Source: Candidatus Babelota bacterium (GTDB lineage Bacteria; Babelota; Babeliae; Babelales; CAIQNR01). From it: a DNA stretch of 64,000 nt. Below, in pieces: positions 1,622-54,589 of this stretch; position 1 is the first letter of the stretch, and every line of letters starts with the position of its first letter. Made by a program: the position numbers and the translations under genes. Below the pieces are notes generated by a model, which had not been told where the DNA came from, did not search any database, and worked only from the letters and a program-made list of their open reading frames with translations. Location: contig CBFHTA010000001.1 of NCBI GenBank assembly GCA_965658655.1, positions 328,722 through 392,721 of the forward strand. Reading direction: 5' to 3'.

Positions 1622-2035
1622 ATGAAAAAGCAATTAGTTTTTTTAGTCATAGTATTGTTAGCAGCAAAGAATGTTTTTCCTTCTGCTCCTCCTCCTCAGT
1701 ATCAACACCTTGAGCATAGTGCTGGTCCTTGTGGGAAAGATGCAATTGTTTCTGCGCCACCATCTTTAGTTATAGATAAATATGATCCAACAAAAGAAGT
1801 CCTAAAAGGTGAAAATAAAGCGGCTGTTTATGTTGTTGAAAATTCATCTTGTGTATGTTTATGTCCTATTAAAGTAAGTATTATTCCAGTTTTGCATGGT
1901 ATTACTACACGATTGTCCTTTGGTTTATTTGGTGCAGCGGATAGTACTATAACCGAAGAAAATAAACATGCAGATTTTGTTGATCAGGCTTCGTATCTTT
2001 CTGTTGACGATGACATGGGAAAAAAGAAAGCATGA
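1622..2035 (+). CDS. Secreted hypothetical protein
   Basis: MKKQLVFLVIVLLAA signal peptide; AAAGG RBS; stop overlaps tkt start (ATGA). Confidence 0.7.
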   Translation: MKKQLVFLVIVLLAAKNVFPSAPPPQYQHLEHSAGPCGKDAIVSAPPSLVIDKYDPTKEVLKGENKAAVYVVENSSCVCLCPIKVSIIPVLHGITTRLSFGLFGAADSTITEENKHADFVDQASYLSVDDDMGKKKA

Positions 2036-3846
2036 AAAGTTTGCTTGAGGAAAAAGCCTATCTGTTACGGTTAGGTTCTTTAAAAGCAACACGTGTTGCA
2101 GGGTCGGGGCATCCAACTTCTTGTTTGTCGGCAGCTGATATTGTTGCAACACTTTTTTTTCATACCATGCAGTACGATCCACAGAATCCATATAACCCAA
2201 ATAATGATTGTTTTATTTTATCCAAAGGTCATGCTGCACCTTTGTTGTATGCTGCGTGGTGGCAGGCGGGGGTGTTAACAGAAGAAGAGTTGCTCACACT
2301 TCGTCAATTCGATTCTGTTTTAGAAGGGCATCCAACTTCACGATTTGGGTATACCAAAGTTGCAACAGGGTCACTGGGTTGTGGCCTTTCCATTGGTTTA
2401 GGAGAAGCACTTGCCGGCCGTGTTGCACGTAAAAATTTTAGAACGTATGTGTTACTCGGTGATAGCGAATGTGCAGAAGGTTCGGTATGGGAAGCAGCAG
2501 AACTTGCGGCGTACTACAAAGCACATACTCTTACCGGAATTGTTGATTATAATAGACTGGGTCAAAGTACAGAAACACTCGATGGACATAATACACACGT
2601 GTTAGCAGAAAAATTTAAAGCTTTTGGTTGGCATACTCTTGAGATAAATGGTCACAATATTGATGAGATTGTACAAGCCTTTGAGGATGCGCAACAAGAA
2701 AAAGAAAAGCCAACCATAATTATTGCAAAAACATTTAAAGGTAATGGTGTAGCATCTGTTCAAAATTTAGAAAATTTTCATGGTAAAGCGCTCGATGCAA
2801 ATGCTGAAAAACAGTTAGTGCCCTCTGTTAATCATGGTCCAGAGTGGCATCCTAATGTGCCAAAACAAGAAGATGTATTGGAACAAAAAGAATATAGCAT
2901 TCCTGCGCCTTCGTATCAGGAACCAATTGCAACACGTAAAGTGTATGGAGATGCGTTGGCTGCATTAGGTAAAGAATATAAAAATGTTGTTGCGCTAGAT
3001 GCAGAAGTTAAAAACTCTACCTTTGCTCAAACGTTTGAGCAACAACATAAAGAACGGTTCTTCCAATGTTTTATTGCAGAGCAGAATATGGTTGGTATGG
3101 CAATCGGATTCTCTGTGCATAATTTTTTACCGTTCACTTCAACTTTTGGTGCCTTTTTTTCTCGTGCGTTTGATCAAATTCGAATGGCAGGTGTTGGTCG
3201 AAACGCAATTAAACTTTCTGGGTCACATGCTGGAATTTCTATTGGAGAGGATGGTCCATCTCAAATGGCACTCGAGGATTTGGCTTTTATGCGTGCGGTG
3301 CCGAAGGCTCTTGTTCTTTATCCAAGCGATGGAGTGAGTGCGTACAAATGCGTAGAGCTTATGGCAAATTATTCCGATGGTGTTTCGTATCTTCGAACCA
3401 CTAGAGAGGCAACACCAATACTTTATAAAAGCAACGAAGAATTTAAAGTGGGGGGCTGCAAAATTCTTAAAAAGAATCGAAATTCCAAAGCACTTATTGT
3501 TGCTGCAGGTATTACGGTGCATGAAGCACTGAAAGCAGAAGAGCAGCTTGAGGCTGAACAGATCTATGTTTCTATTATAGATGCGTATTCCATTAAGCCG
3601 CTTGATGATTATACTATTGCGCGCGAAGCACGTGAGTGCGGTAATGTGATTGTTACTGTTGAAGATCACTACCTTGAAGGTGGCCTTGGCAGTGCTGTTG
3701 CAGATGCTTTAAGCGATACCGATATTCGTGTGATACGCTTGGCAGTTTCTGAATTGCCTCGATCAGGTAAACCCGAAGAGCTTCGCTCTTGGGCCGGTAT
3801 TGATACAGCAGCGCTTATAAAACACATCAAAATTTTGGTTCAATAA
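2032..3846 (+). CDS. tkt: Transketolase, short animal-like type
   Basis: GSGHPTSCLSAA, LSKGHAAP, EGHPT, ATGSLG, GDSECAEGSVWEA (ThDP motif), FIAEQNMVG, SHAGISIGEDGPSQMALED. Confidence 0.95.
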   Translation: MKSLLEEKAYLLRLGSLKATRVAGSGHPTSCLSAADIVATLFFHTMQYDPQNPYNPNNDCFILSKGHAAPLLYAAWWQAGVLTEEELLTLRQFDSVLEGHPTSRFGYTKVATGSLGCGLSIGLGEALAGRVARKNFRTYVLLGDSECAEGSVWEAAELAAYYKAHTLTGIVDYNRLGQSTETLDGHNTHVLAEKFKAFGWHTLEINGHNIDEIVQAFEDAQQEKEKPTIIIAKTFKGNGVASVQNLENFHGKALDANAEKQLVPSVNHGPEWHPNVPKQEDVLEQKEYSIPAPSYQEPIATRKVYGDALAALGKEYKNVVALDAEVKNSTFAQTFEQQHKERFFQCFIAEQNMVGMAIGFSVHNFLPFTSTFGAFFSRAFDQIRMAGVGRNAIKLSGSHAGISIGEDGPSQMALEDLAFMRAVPKALVLYPSDGVSAYKCVELMANYSDGVSYLRTTREATPILYKSNEEFKVGGCKILKKNRNSKALIVAAGITVHEALKAEEQLEAEQIYVSIIDAYSIKPLDDYTIAREARECGNVIVTVEDHYLEGGLGSAVADALSDTDIRVIRLAVSELPRSGKPEELRSWAGIDTAALIKHIKILVQ

Positions 3847-3908: not shown

Positions 3909-4067
3909 TTTGCAGGTTATAATCGAGCTGTTAGATCAGTTGCTTGACTGAGGTAGATTGAAAAAAATAAACAGATAACGGGCACAAAGTTGTAAATAAG
4001 TTTAACTACCAATAAAACAGTCTTTGAAGATATAAAATAAAAAATACATAAAGCTTTAATCTGCAAA
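3909..4067 (+). ncRNA. Candidate 6S-like rod-shaped small RNA
   Basis: Nested pairings 3909-3919/4057-4067, 3946-3950/4018-4022 and 3952-3956/4006-4010, with an A-rich internal bubble; terminator follows immediately. Confidence 0.35.
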
Positions 4068-4092
4068 ACCCACTGTTTCTCGGTGGGTTTTT
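4065..4092 (+). terminator. Intrinsic terminator
   Basis: aaaacccactg-tttct-cggtgggtttt followed by T-rich tail. Confidence 0.8.
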
Positions 4093-4153
4093 CGTTGTTT
4101 ACATTATTTCCTATTTAAGGCAAACTGACCGCTATAGTGTGTAGGAGAGCTCC

Positions 4154-5653
4154 ATGAAAAAACTTATTCTTGTATTATTGTCTGTGTCGTTATTAATAGG
4201 CTCATTCTTATTTGTTTCTAAAGCAAATTCCTTTAAATCTTCGGTTCCTTTAGCGAGCTCATCAATAGCTCCTTCAATGAATGATTTTAGTCCTTCTAAA
4301 AAGATCGCTCAGTGTTCTTCTTCTGGTCAAAAAGAACGTCATGGTGCATTTGTAGTTGTCAGTGCGGGAACTACTGATGATGGTAAGGGTAAGATTTGTG
4401 ATTACTTGGCAAAAGATGCTTTCTTTTCTGTTCGATCTCAGGGAACACTTCCTGAAGGTCACAGAGTGCAAAAGAATGGAAAAACATATGTTCTCCATCA
4501 TATTCCGGTAGCGATTCTTACACCGCATGTAAAATGTTATCTGGCACCGGGAATGGTCATTGACCCCAAATTACTTTTTCAAGAAATAGATGATTTACAA
4601 AAGCAAGGTATAAATCTTGATGATCGTTTGAAAATTTCTACGGCAGCTCATTTATTAATGCCATATCATGTGCAGATCGATAATCTTGGTAGAAAAACAA
4701 AACGACGCAAGGGTGCTGCAGGAGTTCGTCGTGGTGCAGGAGCCGCTTCATCGGATAAACGCTTAGGTTTGGGAATTCGTATTGCAGATTTGTGGGGAGA
4801 AGATTTCCCTATTGATCTCAAAGAAAAATTGAAAATTATTAATGAAACTCTTACCAAGGTATATGGAGCAAAGCCTGTGGCGTATAAGCCTTTACTAAAA
4901 GAGCTTATGGAGTACAAGGAAAAATTTGAGCCTTATGTTCGGGACCGTGTTGAATTAAAACTAAACCAGCTTTTAAGAAAACGTAAAAAAGGAATCTTTG
5001 AAGGTGCCCATGGTACATTTCTTGATATTACGCATGGTATTTATCCATATACTGCTCCTACCGATACCACTGCTTCTGGAATAGTTGCAAATGCTGGTGT
5101 AGGACCGTCTAAGATCGATCATACTTTGGGTGTAGTGAAAGCCTATGCTACATGTGAAGGCGATGGTCCGTTTACAACAGAAATTAAAGATCCAGCAATT
5201 ACTCAGCATTTTAGAGATAAAAATAAAGCACTTTCTGATCCAGATAGATATCGTTATGGTTGGCTTGATGCTGTTATGGTTCGTCAAGCTATGTTTATCA
5301 ATGGAATGGACTCTATTGTAATTAGTCGACTAGATGATTTAGATGGACTAGATAAAATAAAAGTTTGTATCGATTACGATTATAAAGAGAATCCTGAAGA
5401 TACTGAAGTACAGCATTTCGACTATCCACCGCCTAGAATTAAGCAGTTACGGGAGGTTACACCGCATTATGTTGAGTTTGATGGGTGGAAAGAATCAACC
5501 AAAAATGCAAAGCACATTTCGCAGTTACCTTTGAATGCACGTGTGTTTGTTAAACGTCTAGAAGCTTTATTTGCGACACCTGTAAGCATTGTTTCTGTTG
5601 GCCCTCGTCAAGATCAAACAATTTTAGTGAATGATTTCTTTAGATACATTTAA
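4154..5653 (+). CDS. Divergent adenylosuccinate synthetase (PurA) family protein with N-terminal signal peptide
   Basis: TDDGKGK P-loop, EGH, AHLLMPYH, FEGAHG..LDITHGIYPY, GVVKAY, GWLD, RLD, SVGP; about 62-aa N-terminal extension; AGGAG RBS. Symbol withheld because substrate residues are altered. Confidence 0.88.
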   Translation: MKKLILVLLSVSLLIGSFLFVSKANSFKSSVPLASSSIAPSMNDFSPSKKIAQCSSSGQKERHGAFVVVSAGTTDDGKGKICDYLAKDAFFSVRSQGTLPEGHRVQKNGKTYVLHHIPVAILTPHVKCYLAPGMVIDPKLLFQEIDDLQKQGINLDDRLKISTAAHLLMPYHVQIDNLGRKTKRRKGAAGVRRGAGAASSDKRLGLGIRIADLWGEDFPIDLKEKLKIINETLTKVYGAKPVAYKPLLKELMEYKEKFEPYVRDRVELKLNQLLRKRKKGIFEGAHGTFLDITHGIYPYTAPTDTTASGIVANAGVGPSKIDHTLGVVKAYATCEGDGPFTTEIKDPAITQHFRDKNKALSDPDRYRYGWLDAVMVRQAMFINGMDSIVISRLDDLDGLDKIKVCIDYDYKENPEDTEVQHFDYPPPRIKQLREVTPHYVEFDGWKESTKNAKHISQLPLNARVFVKRLEALFATPVSIVSVGPRQDQTILVNDFFRYI

Positions 5654-6015: not shown

Positions 6016-7998
6016 TTACTTCTTGTCAGTATACGCTTTCAGCTTTCTAATAACAAGAGAAGGGTTGTATTCGCTGCACTCAAGGTTGTACCAATCACTT
6101 TTTTTGCATGATTGGAAAAAGCGTGAGAATCTATTTATCCAAATTCCATGATGGTATTTACTTAAGTCAAAATTTGGGTGTGTTTTATCTGTAATATGAG
6201 ATAACATAACCACAGGAAGGTGTACTGCGTGAATACCATGTTGTTCAAACCATGGTTTATGACTGTAATAATTAAGATTAAACGTTGCCAAAATGAGCGG
6301 TTCTTGGGCAGATCCTAAGCCTGCGAAAAGTCCTCGATAAAACCAACAATCAAGAAGTGAGGGGAGATAAGCACCTATGAGAGCATGCGGAAGTTCTTTT
6401 TTAATAATGGTTTTTAGTTTAATTCCTAATTGCTTTGCGGCATCTTGGAGTGTAGAAAAATACTCATGAAAACGGTTATTTTTAAATAAGAATGTTATAC
6501 GTTTGTTTATTGTGTTTAGTTTCTTGAGGTTCGATTGTTTTGTGGTGCGAATATAGAGGTTCCAGGAAACATCAGAAAAATCCATAAGATTCGTATAGAC
6601 AGCCGCTTGCTCTGGTGCATGATACATTTCAAAATCAAAAAAGATACCACCGATAGGAACATGTTTATCTGCATGCTTTTTCCAGTGAGTTATAAACTTT
6701 TTAAATGGGTCAATGAATTCTTCTTTCCAGAAGTGTTGATCATCGAGTGGAGAAGGAATCTTTGAGAATTCTTTCCCATAAACATTCCTTACTGGATGAG
6801 TAACAGGTGACTTTCCATAGTTATTGGTAAGATCGAAACCTACAAAAAGAGATGGTTTTTCTTGTTCTCTGTAAGTTCTTGCAAGTTCTTTAGTAAAATG
6901 ACGAATTCCTGTGGTAACTTGTTCGTATTCTTTTTCTGAGCGCATAGCCTGCTTGCTCAAAAACCATTCCGGATTAAATGAGGTCCATAAAAGATTAACG
7001 TTGCTTTTTTTTAGGTAGTCTACAGCAGTTTTCCAATTATTTTTAAGTGGTTCAATTTCCATCCAGGCGCAAGAAATTTTTTTGTGAAAAAGTGGATGTG
7101 CGGCTGCTGTATAAAGTTTTGACTCTTGTGGAAGCACGTTTGGTGGTAACGTAATTTTTACAGGACTTGCTGTTGGTGATTGACCGGTTGTAAGTGTGGT
7201 ATGTAACTGAAGCAAAGTATGCTGAAGAACGGTAAGGAATTTCTTTCTATCTTTCCAGTCGTAAGGAGAGAAGAACATATTTTCTTCAAGATCGACACCT
7301 TTAAAACTGCTGTCTGGCCCTAAAACAAGAGCTGCATGTTTATGGGGTTTTACATACAATCCCAAAGGCAAAATGCTTTCTAAATAACTTTTTTTACGAT
7401 CGGCTGGAAGCGTAAGAGGTTTATGCTCTAATTCACTTAAAGATGAGAGTCGACAACGAAGAGGTTTTTTTTGACCCTTATATGAAACGCGAGGATAAAA
7501 CAAAGAAGTTCTGTACGTCGAGCTACGGTCATTGTCTGTTGAAAAAATACACGGGCCTAGATCATTTGTAATGGTACACAGTTGATGATTGATATTTAGT
7601 TGGTTAAAAAATCCACAAAGTGCATGAGCAACTTGGGGATTTTGTGGAAGCTTGCCTGGGAAAAGAAGTGCTAGAAGACCTTTTTCTTTTTTGGCGTACG
7701 CTTTAACTAAAGAGAGTATTCTTGTGGTTAAAGGACTTTTGGTTGATGCACCACTGTTTTTAAAAAAGTAAGGATCGAGGAATAAAAAAACAGCGTCAAA
7801 GTTTTGTAAGCTGTTTGGAGGACTATAGAAATTTGCAAAAGAGCAGTTGAAACCAACAGATTCTGCCAGTGCTTGTAATTGTGAATAACTTGCCTGTGAT
7901 TTTCCGCTTGTATCTAGAATAAGTAATTTTTTTTGTGGTGTTTTTGCGCAGAGCTGTACAAAATTTAAAAACAGTAAGTAATACTTTAACTTTTTCAT
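6016..7998 (-). CDS. Secreted protein, putative glycoside-hydrolase-like TIM barrel with N-terminal alpha/beta domain
   Basis: 660 aa, signal peptide, AGGGG RBS; GGIFFDFEMY strand-end acidic motif, PSPLDD.FW and aromatic-rich C-half resemble GH-like barrels; function is a low-confidence guess. Confidence 0.6.
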   Translation of the reverse strand: MKKLKYYLLFLNFVQLCAKTPQKKLLILDTSGKSQASYSQLQALAESVGFNCSFANFYSPPNSLQNFDAVFLFLDPYFFKNSGASTKSPLTTRILSLVKAYAKKEKGLLALLFPGKLPQNPQVAHALCGFFNQLNINHQLCTITNDLGPCIFSTDNDRSSTYRTSLFYPRVSYKGQKKPLRCRLSSLSELEHKPLTLPADRKKSYLESILPLGLYVKPHKHAALVLGPDSSFKGVDLEENMFFSPYDWKDRKKFLTVLQHTLLQLHTTLTTGQSPTASPVKITLPPNVLPQESKLYTAAAHPLFHKKISCAWMEIEPLKNNWKTAVDYLKKSNVNLLWTSFNPEWFLSKQAMRSEKEYEQVTTGIRHFTKELARTYREQEKPSLFVGFDLTNNYGKSPVTHPVRNVYGKEFSKIPSPLDDQHFWKEEFIDPFKKFITHWKKHADKHVPIGGIFFDFEMYHAPEQAAVYTNLMDFSDVSWNLYIRTTKQSNLKKLNTINKRITFLFKNNRFHEYFSTLQDAAKQLGIKLKTIIKKELPHALIGAYLPSLLDCWFYRGLFAGLGSAQEPLILATFNLNYYSHKPWFEQHGIHAVHLPVVMLSHITDKTHPNFDLSKYHHGIWINRFSRFFQSCKKSDWYNLECSEYNPSLVIRKLKAYTDKK

Positions 7999-54212: not shown

Positions 54213-54589
54213 TTATCTGCAGTTTAACAATAAGCCGGATTCTGTATCTATTGAATCAATTCAATAAATGGCAATCATGTATCTAAGCGACATACCCGCA
54301 TGTTTAACCGGAACAAACGACCGACACATGCCTATTTTGTCTTGCTCCAAGCAGGGTTTACCCCACATATATATTACTATATATGCCCGTGCGCTCTTAC
54401 CGCACATTTTCACCCTTACCAACTACCAATGTAGAAGGCGGTTTATTTTCTGTGGCACTTTCCGTGAGTTCACACTCCCCTTGATTGAAAACTTACGTTT
54501 TCTTCCAAGGTGCTTTGTTCGTTAGGAGTCCGGACTTTCCTCTCTCAAGATTGCTCTTAAAAGCGATTGCCTCGTCTAACTGCAGATAA
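54213..54589 (-). ncRNA. rnpB: RNase P RNA
   Basis: Universal GAGGAAAGTCCGGACTCC and ACAGAATCCGGCTTAT boxes, AAAGTGCCACAGAAA, GGGTAAACCC…GAGCAAG; P1 ttatctgcagtt/aactgcagataa; ends approximate. Confidence 0.96.

Follow-up and report, generated by a model that had tools for sequence, protein, structure and literature searches.

We analysed a window of 64,000 nt, the whole stretch of DNA studied here, from contig CBFHTA010000001.1 of assembly GCA_965658655.1 (genome G000 in what follows). Our subject is the open reading frame (ORF) at 4154..5653, which encodes a protein of 499 amino acids related to adenylosuccinate synthetase (PurA). PurA is a textbook cytoplasmic housekeeping enzyme. An earlier inspection of the same letters (the sequence-only reading) had reported this frame correctly and had called its product an exported PurA paralogue with an intact catalytic core and rewired pockets for inosine monophosphate (IMP) and aspartate. 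We found that the protein has a complete PurA fold behind a leader and a Ser-rich linker and that its gene is held by purifying selection in every genome of one bacterial family. Its residues, its profile scores and the lack of a lyase gene make activity as an adenylosuccinate synthetase very unlikely. The features of the locus are collected in Table 1.

Table 1. Features of the PurA-like gene and its upstream neighbour. Positions are those of the window; residue changes are numbered as in E. coli PurA.
Feature	Position	Strand	Remark
Transketolase gene, upstream neighbour	2032..3846	+	shared by the orthologues of two further genera
Terminator-like hairpin after the transketolase gene	4065..4091	+	11-pair stem, then T run
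Shine-Dalgarno motif AGGAG	4143..4147	+	6 nt before ATG 4154; read from the sequence
Whole ORF, PurA-like protein predicted to be exported	4154..5653	+	499 aa plus stop
Sec-type leader, residues 1-24	4154..4225	+	heuristic; modelled helix 2-24
Ser-rich linker, residues 25-66	4226..4351	+	disordered in the model (pLDDT <50, residues 25-58)
Adenylosuccinate synthetase domain PF00709, residues 67-490	4352..5623	+	profile match, Foldseek
P-loop TDDGKGK, residues 74-80	4373..4393	+	G12>T, E14>D; D13, K16, K18 kept
QGTLPEGHR, residues 96-104	4439..4465	+	H41 kept; G36, H37, N38 (>P), A39 changed
AGVRRG replacing GTTGRG, residues 189-194	4718..4735	+	T128/T129, presumed phosphate ligands, lost
G205 at the R143 position	4766..4768	+	G in 32/36 clade rows
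TAPTD replacing VTSSN, residues 300-304	5051..5065	+	T239 lost; 300-301 end the low-confidence loop 289-301
LSDPDRYR replacing the aspartate loop (G)ATTGRRRR, residues 360-367	5231..5254	+	
SRLD, guanine-specificity element (E. coli TKLD), residues 391-394	5324..5335	+	D333 kept
SVGP, guanine-base element, residues 481-484	5594..5605	+	kept

The start at ATG 4154 is well supported by the AGGAG motif and by the hairpin upstream of it. Since this hairpin closes the transketolase gene, the PurA-like gene would form a transcription unit of its own. The sequence-only reading had raised the possibility of a real start inside the frame that leaves no signal peptide. M42 (ATG 4277) is the sole methionine ahead of the domain, it is preceded by no purine-rich or Shine-Dalgarno site, and we rejected it as a start.

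The entire 416-position profile of PF00709 is covered by the domain (E 1e-112). In the AlphaFold2 model (mean predicted local distance difference test, pLDDT, of 84.2) the leader is a helix, disorder follows up to residue 58, and the PurA fold runs from about residue 62 with a single low-confidence loop inside the otherwise confident structure. A Foldseek search against the PDB gave exclusively PurA structures as top matches, with target-normalised template modelling (TM) scores of 0.87-0.93, and the ESM Atlas annotation says nothing beyond "adenylosuccinate synthetase". The full PurA fold and the Ser-rich linker described earlier are therefore both borne out. The linker is limited to the closest relatives (P0002-P0006 in alignment A1), of which P0005 agrees with the ORF of genome G107 over the residues shown. 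The protein nevertheless falls short of both NCBIfam purA equivalog cut-offs, with 377.7 against 402 for NF002223 and 347.1 against 395.55 for TIGR00184. We also considered an identity with the phage enzyme PurZ and rejected it, as model NF038379 gave 69.4 bits against a cut-off of 300.

PurA-like homodimerisation is probable from structure prediction. Residues 62-499 modelled as a homodimer with ESMFold2 scored 0.89, while the best of three controls scored 0.00. At that mark, 20 of 30 benchmark structures with a same-chain pair pass, compared with 1 of 23 single-chain structures. Agreement between the runs covered at least 98% of the contacts, with a partner pLDDT of at least 88. The predicted interface takes up 76 of 438 residues and includes residues 199-209, the helix that bears the former R143. 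PurA dimers have already been solved, so this pass may merely mirror the likeness to them.

We then compared the active site with E. coli PurA (1ade) through an HMMER alignment. The kept residues are D13 (D75), K16 (K78), K18 (K80), H41 (H103), D333 (D394) and S414/G416/P417 (S481/G483/P484). The changed ones are E14>D76, N38>P100, T128/T129>G190/V191, R143>G205, Q224>H286, T239/S240>A301/P302, T300/T301>S361/D362, R303>D364, R305>Y366 and K331>R392, to which the deletion of G298 has to be added. Two of the changes, E14>D and K331>R, are conservative, and the charge at position 303 is reversed. Sorted by function, the set for guanosine triphosphate (GTP) and phosphoryl transfer (P-loop, D13, K16, H41, K331/D333, S414-P417) is kept, as TDDGKGK, GH, SRLD and SVGP. 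D13, K16 and H41 with the P-loop are, as we assume, the residues with which PurA phosphorylates O6 of IMP. The positions that we take to be the IMP 5'-phosphate ligands, N38, T128/T129, T239 and R143, are not kept (P, G/V, A and G in their place), and they show little or no variation across 20 canonical rows. Among them, R143 is presumably the arginine that reaches into the IMP site from the partner subunit. Likewise, T300, T301, R303 and R305, in our assumption the aspartate loop, have become S, D, D and Y.

The earlier statement that D13, H41 and the GTP elements are kept agrees with this map, and all the IMP-contact and aspartate-loop substitutions that it listed are real. Three items on its motif list are of no diagnostic worth, however: among 13 PurA rows with canonical motifs, H224 occurs in three, R331 in one, and SVGP is the commonest form.

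To see how the constraint is spread, we used the 107 alignment columns with little or no variation among the 20 canonical rows. The window protein keeps 69 of them and changes 38. Conservation was taken as the share of the commonest residue among the 11 nearest relatives (P0001-P0011, with identity to the window protein down to about 60%). It averaged 0.97 at the 69 kept positions, 0.80 over all 433 domain columns and 0.69 at the 38 changed positions. Eight of the changed positions are identical across the 11 relatives, or 12 if residues are compared by class. Replacements fixed in this set include G12>T, E14>D, R143>G, R303>D/E, R305>Y and T330>S, with G at 143, an acidic residue at 303 and Y at 305 in 11/11 each, and the heptad TDDGKGK is invariant. 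Since the changed positions are less conserved than the average column, the former IMP and aspartate sub-sites are mostly relaxed rather than re-specified, with a few fixed replacements. The nucleotide-triphosphate site is tightly held in the window's genus. The idea of rewired pockets thus goes too far for most of the site, as 30 of the 38 changed positions vary among the 11 relatives.

The wider clade shows the same loss of substrate ligands. Over 36 clade rows, N38, T128, T239, T301, R303 and R305 are each kept in none, T129 in one and R143 in three, while H41 is kept in 32 and D333 in 34. All 36 rows retain SVGP or a close variant. Other genera of the family have gone further. Genus g2 (L083, L084 and L108, from genomes G031, G012 and G098) has lost the P-loop, E221 and D333. 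In genus g3 the P-loop is broken and the former aspartate loop bears a long insert; the replacement of this loop varies in sequence and length between subclades. The catalytic core is accordingly intact, as had been claimed, in the window's genus and some relatives, and is not in g2. Across the clade as a whole, constraint has been gained at 17 columns, and several of these hold basic residues (R192, R203, R263, K345, K446, R463). Six of the 17 (203, 264, 271, 378, 424 and 427) lie among the 76 predicted interface residues, seemingly a mild excess.

The PurA-like gene defines one bacterial family. We sampled 261 species genomes of the phylum, and scans at order and phylum level gave the identical set: a PurA-family gene is present in 20 of the 261. 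These comprise all 16 genomes (8 genera) of the window's family and 4 of the 245 outside it (G020, G173, G175 and G223). A collection of 5.8 billion proteins added about 32 clusters besides the window's own, with 43-82% identity and 453-503 amino acids, below which ordinary PurAs follow at 42% identity or less and mostly about 427 amino acids. In a tree of 70 rows, the 48 degenerate sequences form one clade (Shimodaira-Hasegawa-like approximate likelihood ratio test, SH-aLRT, 100) with a long stem (0.77 changes per site). Its nearest canonical relatives are PurAs from Chlamydiota metagenome-assembled genomes (MAGs) and three canonical Babeliales PurAs, to which we return below.

Neutral decay is excluded, since the ratio of nonsynonymous to synonymous changes (dN/dS, Nei-Gojobori) was 0.056-0.236 across eight pairs and the frame is open in all 18 full-length copies. 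We relied on three of the pairs: G012/G031 of genus g2 (dN 0.030, dS 0.531, dN/dS 0.056), G104/G101 (dS 0.98, dN/dS 0.094) and G000/G107 (about 0.12, a rough value because dS is 1.8 and near saturation). The ratios of these three pairs and the presence of the gene in 16/16 family genomes confirm the earlier view that the changes are not random decay.

We found no partner enzymes of the pathway. The window's genome, from the Babeliales (Dependentiae), has 928,713 bp in 4 contigs and is 95.4% complete. A canonical purA elsewhere in it, proposed earlier as a check, was not found; the PurA-like gene is the sole PF00709 match. Lyase_1 (PF00206), the family of PurB, fumarase and aspartase, has no match in this genome and none in any of the 16 genomes of the family, and the control search with the same profile matched in 14 of 14 named genomes. 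Neither IMPDH nor Ham1 was found in the window's genome. It does contain four tandem NTT/TLC nucleotide transporters (G000:C1:489882-495556, loci L088-L095, frames of 444-477 amino acids). In agreement with this, the main text of PMC4776705 describes the phylum as energy parasites that depend on NTT transporters and have no nucleotide biosynthesis.

The evidence for export comes from the N-terminus. The leader consists of MKK, an uncharged stretch of 18 residues and S-K-A before N25, with S at -3 and A at -1. It passes a crude heuristic for N-terminal, hydrophobic and cleavage regions, whose counts are leads and not a secretome, and in the AlphaFold2 model it forms a helix with the disordered linker behind it. 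By this rule 319 of the 824 ORFs of at least 100 amino acids in the genome bear a leader when the longest start is used, and 371 when internal methionines are allowed (39-45%). A single leader is therefore not rare here, and the real evidence is its conservation across relatives. Of the 18 full-length PurA-family ORFs in the phylum, 17 pass the rule, and the eighteenth has MKKK and a hydrophobic run by eye. In the database, 27 of 33 clade proteins pass, compared with 1 of 12 canonical PurAs. At least five of the six that were missed begin within the hydrophobic stretch (alignment A1), as if these genes had been called too short. The leader has thus been conserved among relatives while its sequence drifts, and in most of them the uncharged stretch is 11-15 residues, the length of a signal peptide. 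The signal peptide of the sequence-only reading is in this way upheld as a conserved export-type leader, as far as such a rule can tell.

Three other types of export were considered and rejected: a lipoprotein, as the leader has no Cys and so no lipobox; a Tat substrate, as it has no twin arginine; and a type III secretion substrate, as no type III or flagellar export gate (FHIPEP) was found in the genome. Signal peptidase I (SPase I) is present (Peptidase_S26 at C1:435995-436711), as are two secretins, with the type II secretion protein C among the leader-bearing ORFs; lgt and lspA lie within the window. We scanned all 178 leader-bearing ORFs that have no further transmembrane segments against Pfam. 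They include envelope proteins (BamA, OmpH, OmpA, PBP, HtrA), eukaryote-type proteins (10 with C2H2 zinc fingers at E up to 1e-8, and RING, RING plus leucine-rich repeat (LRR), ankyrin and LRR proteins) and, behind N-terminal extensions, enzymes that are normally cytoplasmic (glutamine synthetase, a spermidine-synthase-like protein and a CPT-like P-loop kinase). The proteins of eukaryote type look like an effector set directed at eukaryotes, and since they have the same kind of leader, proteins so tagged can presumably reach the host. The main text of PMC6561590 gives signal peptides for 44% of the coding sequences of the cultured Dependentiae member Chromulinavorax destructans, and its authors interpret many of the putative effectors that have a leader as secreted. 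According to the main text of PMC4776705, TM6 genomes share a type II secretion system that includes gspD in two copies.

Some individual loci of this leader-bearing set deserve mention. The C2H2 proteins number at least ten, five of them in one tandem array (L141:157-3894 on G000 contig C2; L138:10544-11954; L140:14256-14963). The glutamine synthetase (L127:2158-3696, reverse strand, G000 contig C1) is an ATP-using enzyme with a leader-like segment from M34 of its longest frame, and its GlnA score of 421.6 bits falls short of the cut-off of 429.15. A small leader-bearing protein at L140:10679-11119 (G000 contig C1) matches Ntox37 (bacterial toxin 37) in Pfam with E 6e-15.

Based on these results we propose the following role for the PurA-like protein. 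Its leader would carry it over the inner membrane, and SPase I would cut probably near A24/N25. The mature protein would then work in the periplasm, a compartment accessible to host nucleotides in an intracellular energy parasite, or alternatively in the host cell, which it could reach via one of the two secretin channels. Action outside the cytoplasm and possibly on a host, as suggested earlier, would fit a Babeliales energy parasite with SPase I, two secretins and leader-bearing eukaryote-type proteins. Since in this genus the guanine-nucleotide pocket with the P-loop, D13, K16 and H41 is tightly constrained and the IMP 5'-phosphate and aspartate sub-sites are lost, we regard the protein as a putative GTP-binding, possibly GTP-hydrolysing effector or sensor, and not as a three-substrate ligase. 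We assign a probability of about 0.45 to this reading as a whole, that is, to a Sec-exported, dimeric, PurA-derived protein which is no longer an adenylosuccinate synthetase, keeps the guanine-nucleotide site in this genus and acts in the periplasm or the host.

Several observations weigh against this proposal. The leader heuristic gives false positives: its loose form flags MnmG and GlmU, and its strict form an RluF-like pseudouridine synthase, a class I tRNA synthetase and a MutS-like protein. The hydrophobic region (h-region) of 18 residues could also be an uncleaved membrane anchor. D13 with GKGK is found in only 22 of the 36 clade rows. Genus g2 is under dN/dS 0.056 although its P-loop, E221 and D333 are gone, so the selected role of the whole family cannot need GTP. 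The tight D13, K16 and H41 in the window's genus would fit catalysis on a new acceptor as well. Finally, the roles of the E. coli residues are those of the Honzatko and Fromm literature; their support here comes from the invariance in canonical rows and from titles of mutant structures (K16Q, R143L and R303L) among the Foldseek matches.

The main alternatives differ in what the remaining site would do. An exported enzyme that catalyses a new reaction, as a ligase or kinase with GTP-dependent phosphoryl transfer to an acceptor other than IMP or aspartate, would account for the invariant D13, K16, H41 and P-loop in the 11 nearest relatives, for the fixed changes at 143, 303 and 305 and for the gained-constraint columns with their basic residues. 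We nevertheless consider it unlikely, because a re-specified pocket agrees poorly with changed positions that are less conserved than the domain average (0.69 against 0.80), with an aspartate-loop replacement that is inconstant between subclades, and with the loss of D13, K16 or the entire P-loop in other genera. No evidence pointed to a substrate of the new ligase or kinase that had been suggested earlier. The strong selection on g2 without its P-loop, the degraded P-loop in many other members and the gained-constraint columns at the predicted interface would rather suit a non-catalytic pseudoenzyme, in which the PurA fold, once exported, would act as a scaffold or bind a partner, for instance one in the host or the envelope, and any nucleotide is incidental or structural. 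This is in our opinion just as doubtful for the window's protein, since the perfect conservation of the heptad in 11 relatives and the wide retention of H41, D333 and SVGP are hard to explain without a nucleotide.

Two further alternatives question the export or the loss of function. With an uncleaved N-terminal anchor the domain would stay at the inner membrane on its cytoplasmic side, for example near the NTT importers, where GTP is certainly available; the long h-region and the positive charges on both of its sides (K2 and K3 before, K23 and K28 after) speak for it. By the positive-inside rule, however, N-terminal positive charges favour an N-in, C-out orientation, which is what MKK implies. 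The 11-15-residue stretch of most relatives is too short to span a membrane, and eukaryote-type-domain proteins of the genome have the same kind of leader. We therefore find the anchor improbable. Least probable of all is a still-working adenylosuccinate synthetase, exported or not, whose product the host adenylosuccinate lyase finishes. Its fold is full-length, its phosphoryl-transfer residues are intact, and leader-bearing canonical PurAs exist in three other Babeliales genomes, one of which (G173, 84% complete) likewise gave no hit to Lyase_1. In opposition to this, all nine of N38, T128, T129, R143, T239, T300, T301, R303 and R305 are replaced, with the charge reversal at 303, and the E. 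coli R143L and R303L mutant enzymes are reportedly severely impaired. The sub-cut-off scores argue in the same direction.

The three canonical leader-bearing PurAs (loci L085, L110 and L111 in genomes G020, G173 and G223) share with the window protein the phylum and the kind of leader. They differ from it in keeping every canonical motif, and they score 545-566 bits on PF00709 compared with its 377. Their domain begins at residue 26-31, behind the leader. Two of the three have a gene for adenylosuccinate lyase no more than about 1.6 kb away. On contig C92 of G020, PurA stands in a cluster of FumC, PurA, Ham1 ITPase and adenylosuccinate lyase (L113:847-2343, L085:1432-2793, L115:568-1191 and L115:1201-2715). 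All four proteins have a hydrophobic N-terminal leader ahead of the Pfam domain. FumC uses a GTG start codon, which GGAG precedes by 5 nt. By sequence the cluster looks like an export-tagged purine-nucleotide-cycle module. On contig C41 of G223 (L114:2-3782) we observed a fusion of SAICAR synthetase and AIR carboxylase (447 amino acids), a lyase without a leader and PurA with a leader, a purine island within a phylum otherwise without the pathway. The fusion presumably has the layout of animal PAICS.

In the free tree the three canonical leader-bearing PurAs group together (SH-aLRT 93), apart from the degenerate clade. A single clade of all 51 leader-bearing sequences was not rejected by the approximately unbiased (AU) test (p = 0.348, log-likelihood 5.9 below the free tree), so export may have arisen before degeneration. 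One could extend this to a speculative scenario in which an ancestral exported module of PurA, PurB, fumarase and ITPase made adenosine monophosphate (AMP) from host IMP in the periplasm or in the cytosol of the host before import by NTT, and in which the window's family kept the PurA scaffold alone, now as a GTP-dependent effector or sensor acting on the host nucleotide pool or a host protein. We hold this history to be rather unlikely in its entirety. If it were true, Babeliales parasites would run purine-nucleotide chemistry outside their own cytoplasm.

Among known systems, PurA itself (E. coli 1ade/1cg0, Legionella pneumophila 6bs7; PF00709, TIGR00184) is the closest, with E 2e-83 to 2e-79 by sequence and the same fold, phosphoryl-transfer residues, guanine-base elements and predicted homodimer. 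The window protein differs by about 60 additional N-terminal residues of leader and linker, by the replaced substrate ligands, the sub-equivalog score and the separate clade, and by a genome without PurB. The phage enzymes PurZ, PurZ0 and DgsS (7odx, 7vf6, 6fko; NF038379) are likewise PurA-family members repurposed through changes in substrate sub-sites. PurZ keeps aspartate and changes the nucleotide (to deoxyguanosine monophosphate, dGMP) and the energy donor. These enzymes are cytoplasmic, however, and much more distant from the window protein (TM 0.68-0.75). The window's genome also shows a pattern of leader-bearing proteins like that of Chromulinavorax destructans, for which the main text of PMC6561590 reports NTT importers, a Sec system and very many leader-bearing proteins, ankyrin proteins included. 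The word "adenylosuccinate" does not occur in that main text. Our literature searches, which took in the main text of PMC6561590 and PMC4776705, brought up no account of a PurA in Dependentiae that is exported or degenerate.

The protein is a natural case of a PurA taken out of its pathway, with an apparent export signal at its N-terminus and two of three substrate sites lost. Strong selection has retained it in all species of a family whose genomes of 0.7-1.1 Mb have shed almost all metabolism. If it binds GTP outside the cell it would represent a new class of effector or sensor, and if it does not bind GTP, a well-documented new family of pseudoenzymes. The canonical, half-degraded and P-loop-less versions make a ready comparison set. 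A wider question is where exported enzymes that use nucleoside triphosphates find their substrate in intracellular energy parasites, and whether they act on the host nucleotide pool.

As for the surroundings of the gene, transketolase adjoins the orthologue upstream also in G048 and G106, which belong to two further genera of the family, and this shared neighbour supports orthology. Downstream, the window contains a convergent ORF (6016-7998, reverse strand) for a leader-bearing protein of 660 amino acids with no Pfam or NCBIfam family. Its homologues occur in 94 of 261 Babeliales genomes and, within the window's family, only in the window's genus (1 of 15 genomes plus G000). As this distribution does not follow that of the PurA-like gene, we rejected the ORF as a functional partner.

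Regarding the origin of the sequences, the best named homologues of the MnmG of the window's genome come from Candidatus Babeliales and Candidatus Dependentiae, with 62-63% identity. The database proteins P0005 and P0133 (72% PurA-like and 85% MnmG identity), which stem from close relatives of the window's genome, are filed under an "Alteromonas naphthalenivorans" MAG, which is probably a mislabelled or mis-binned Babeliales MAG. The window also carries a full-length bacterial RNase P RNA of class A at 54215-54583 on the reverse strand (251 bits).

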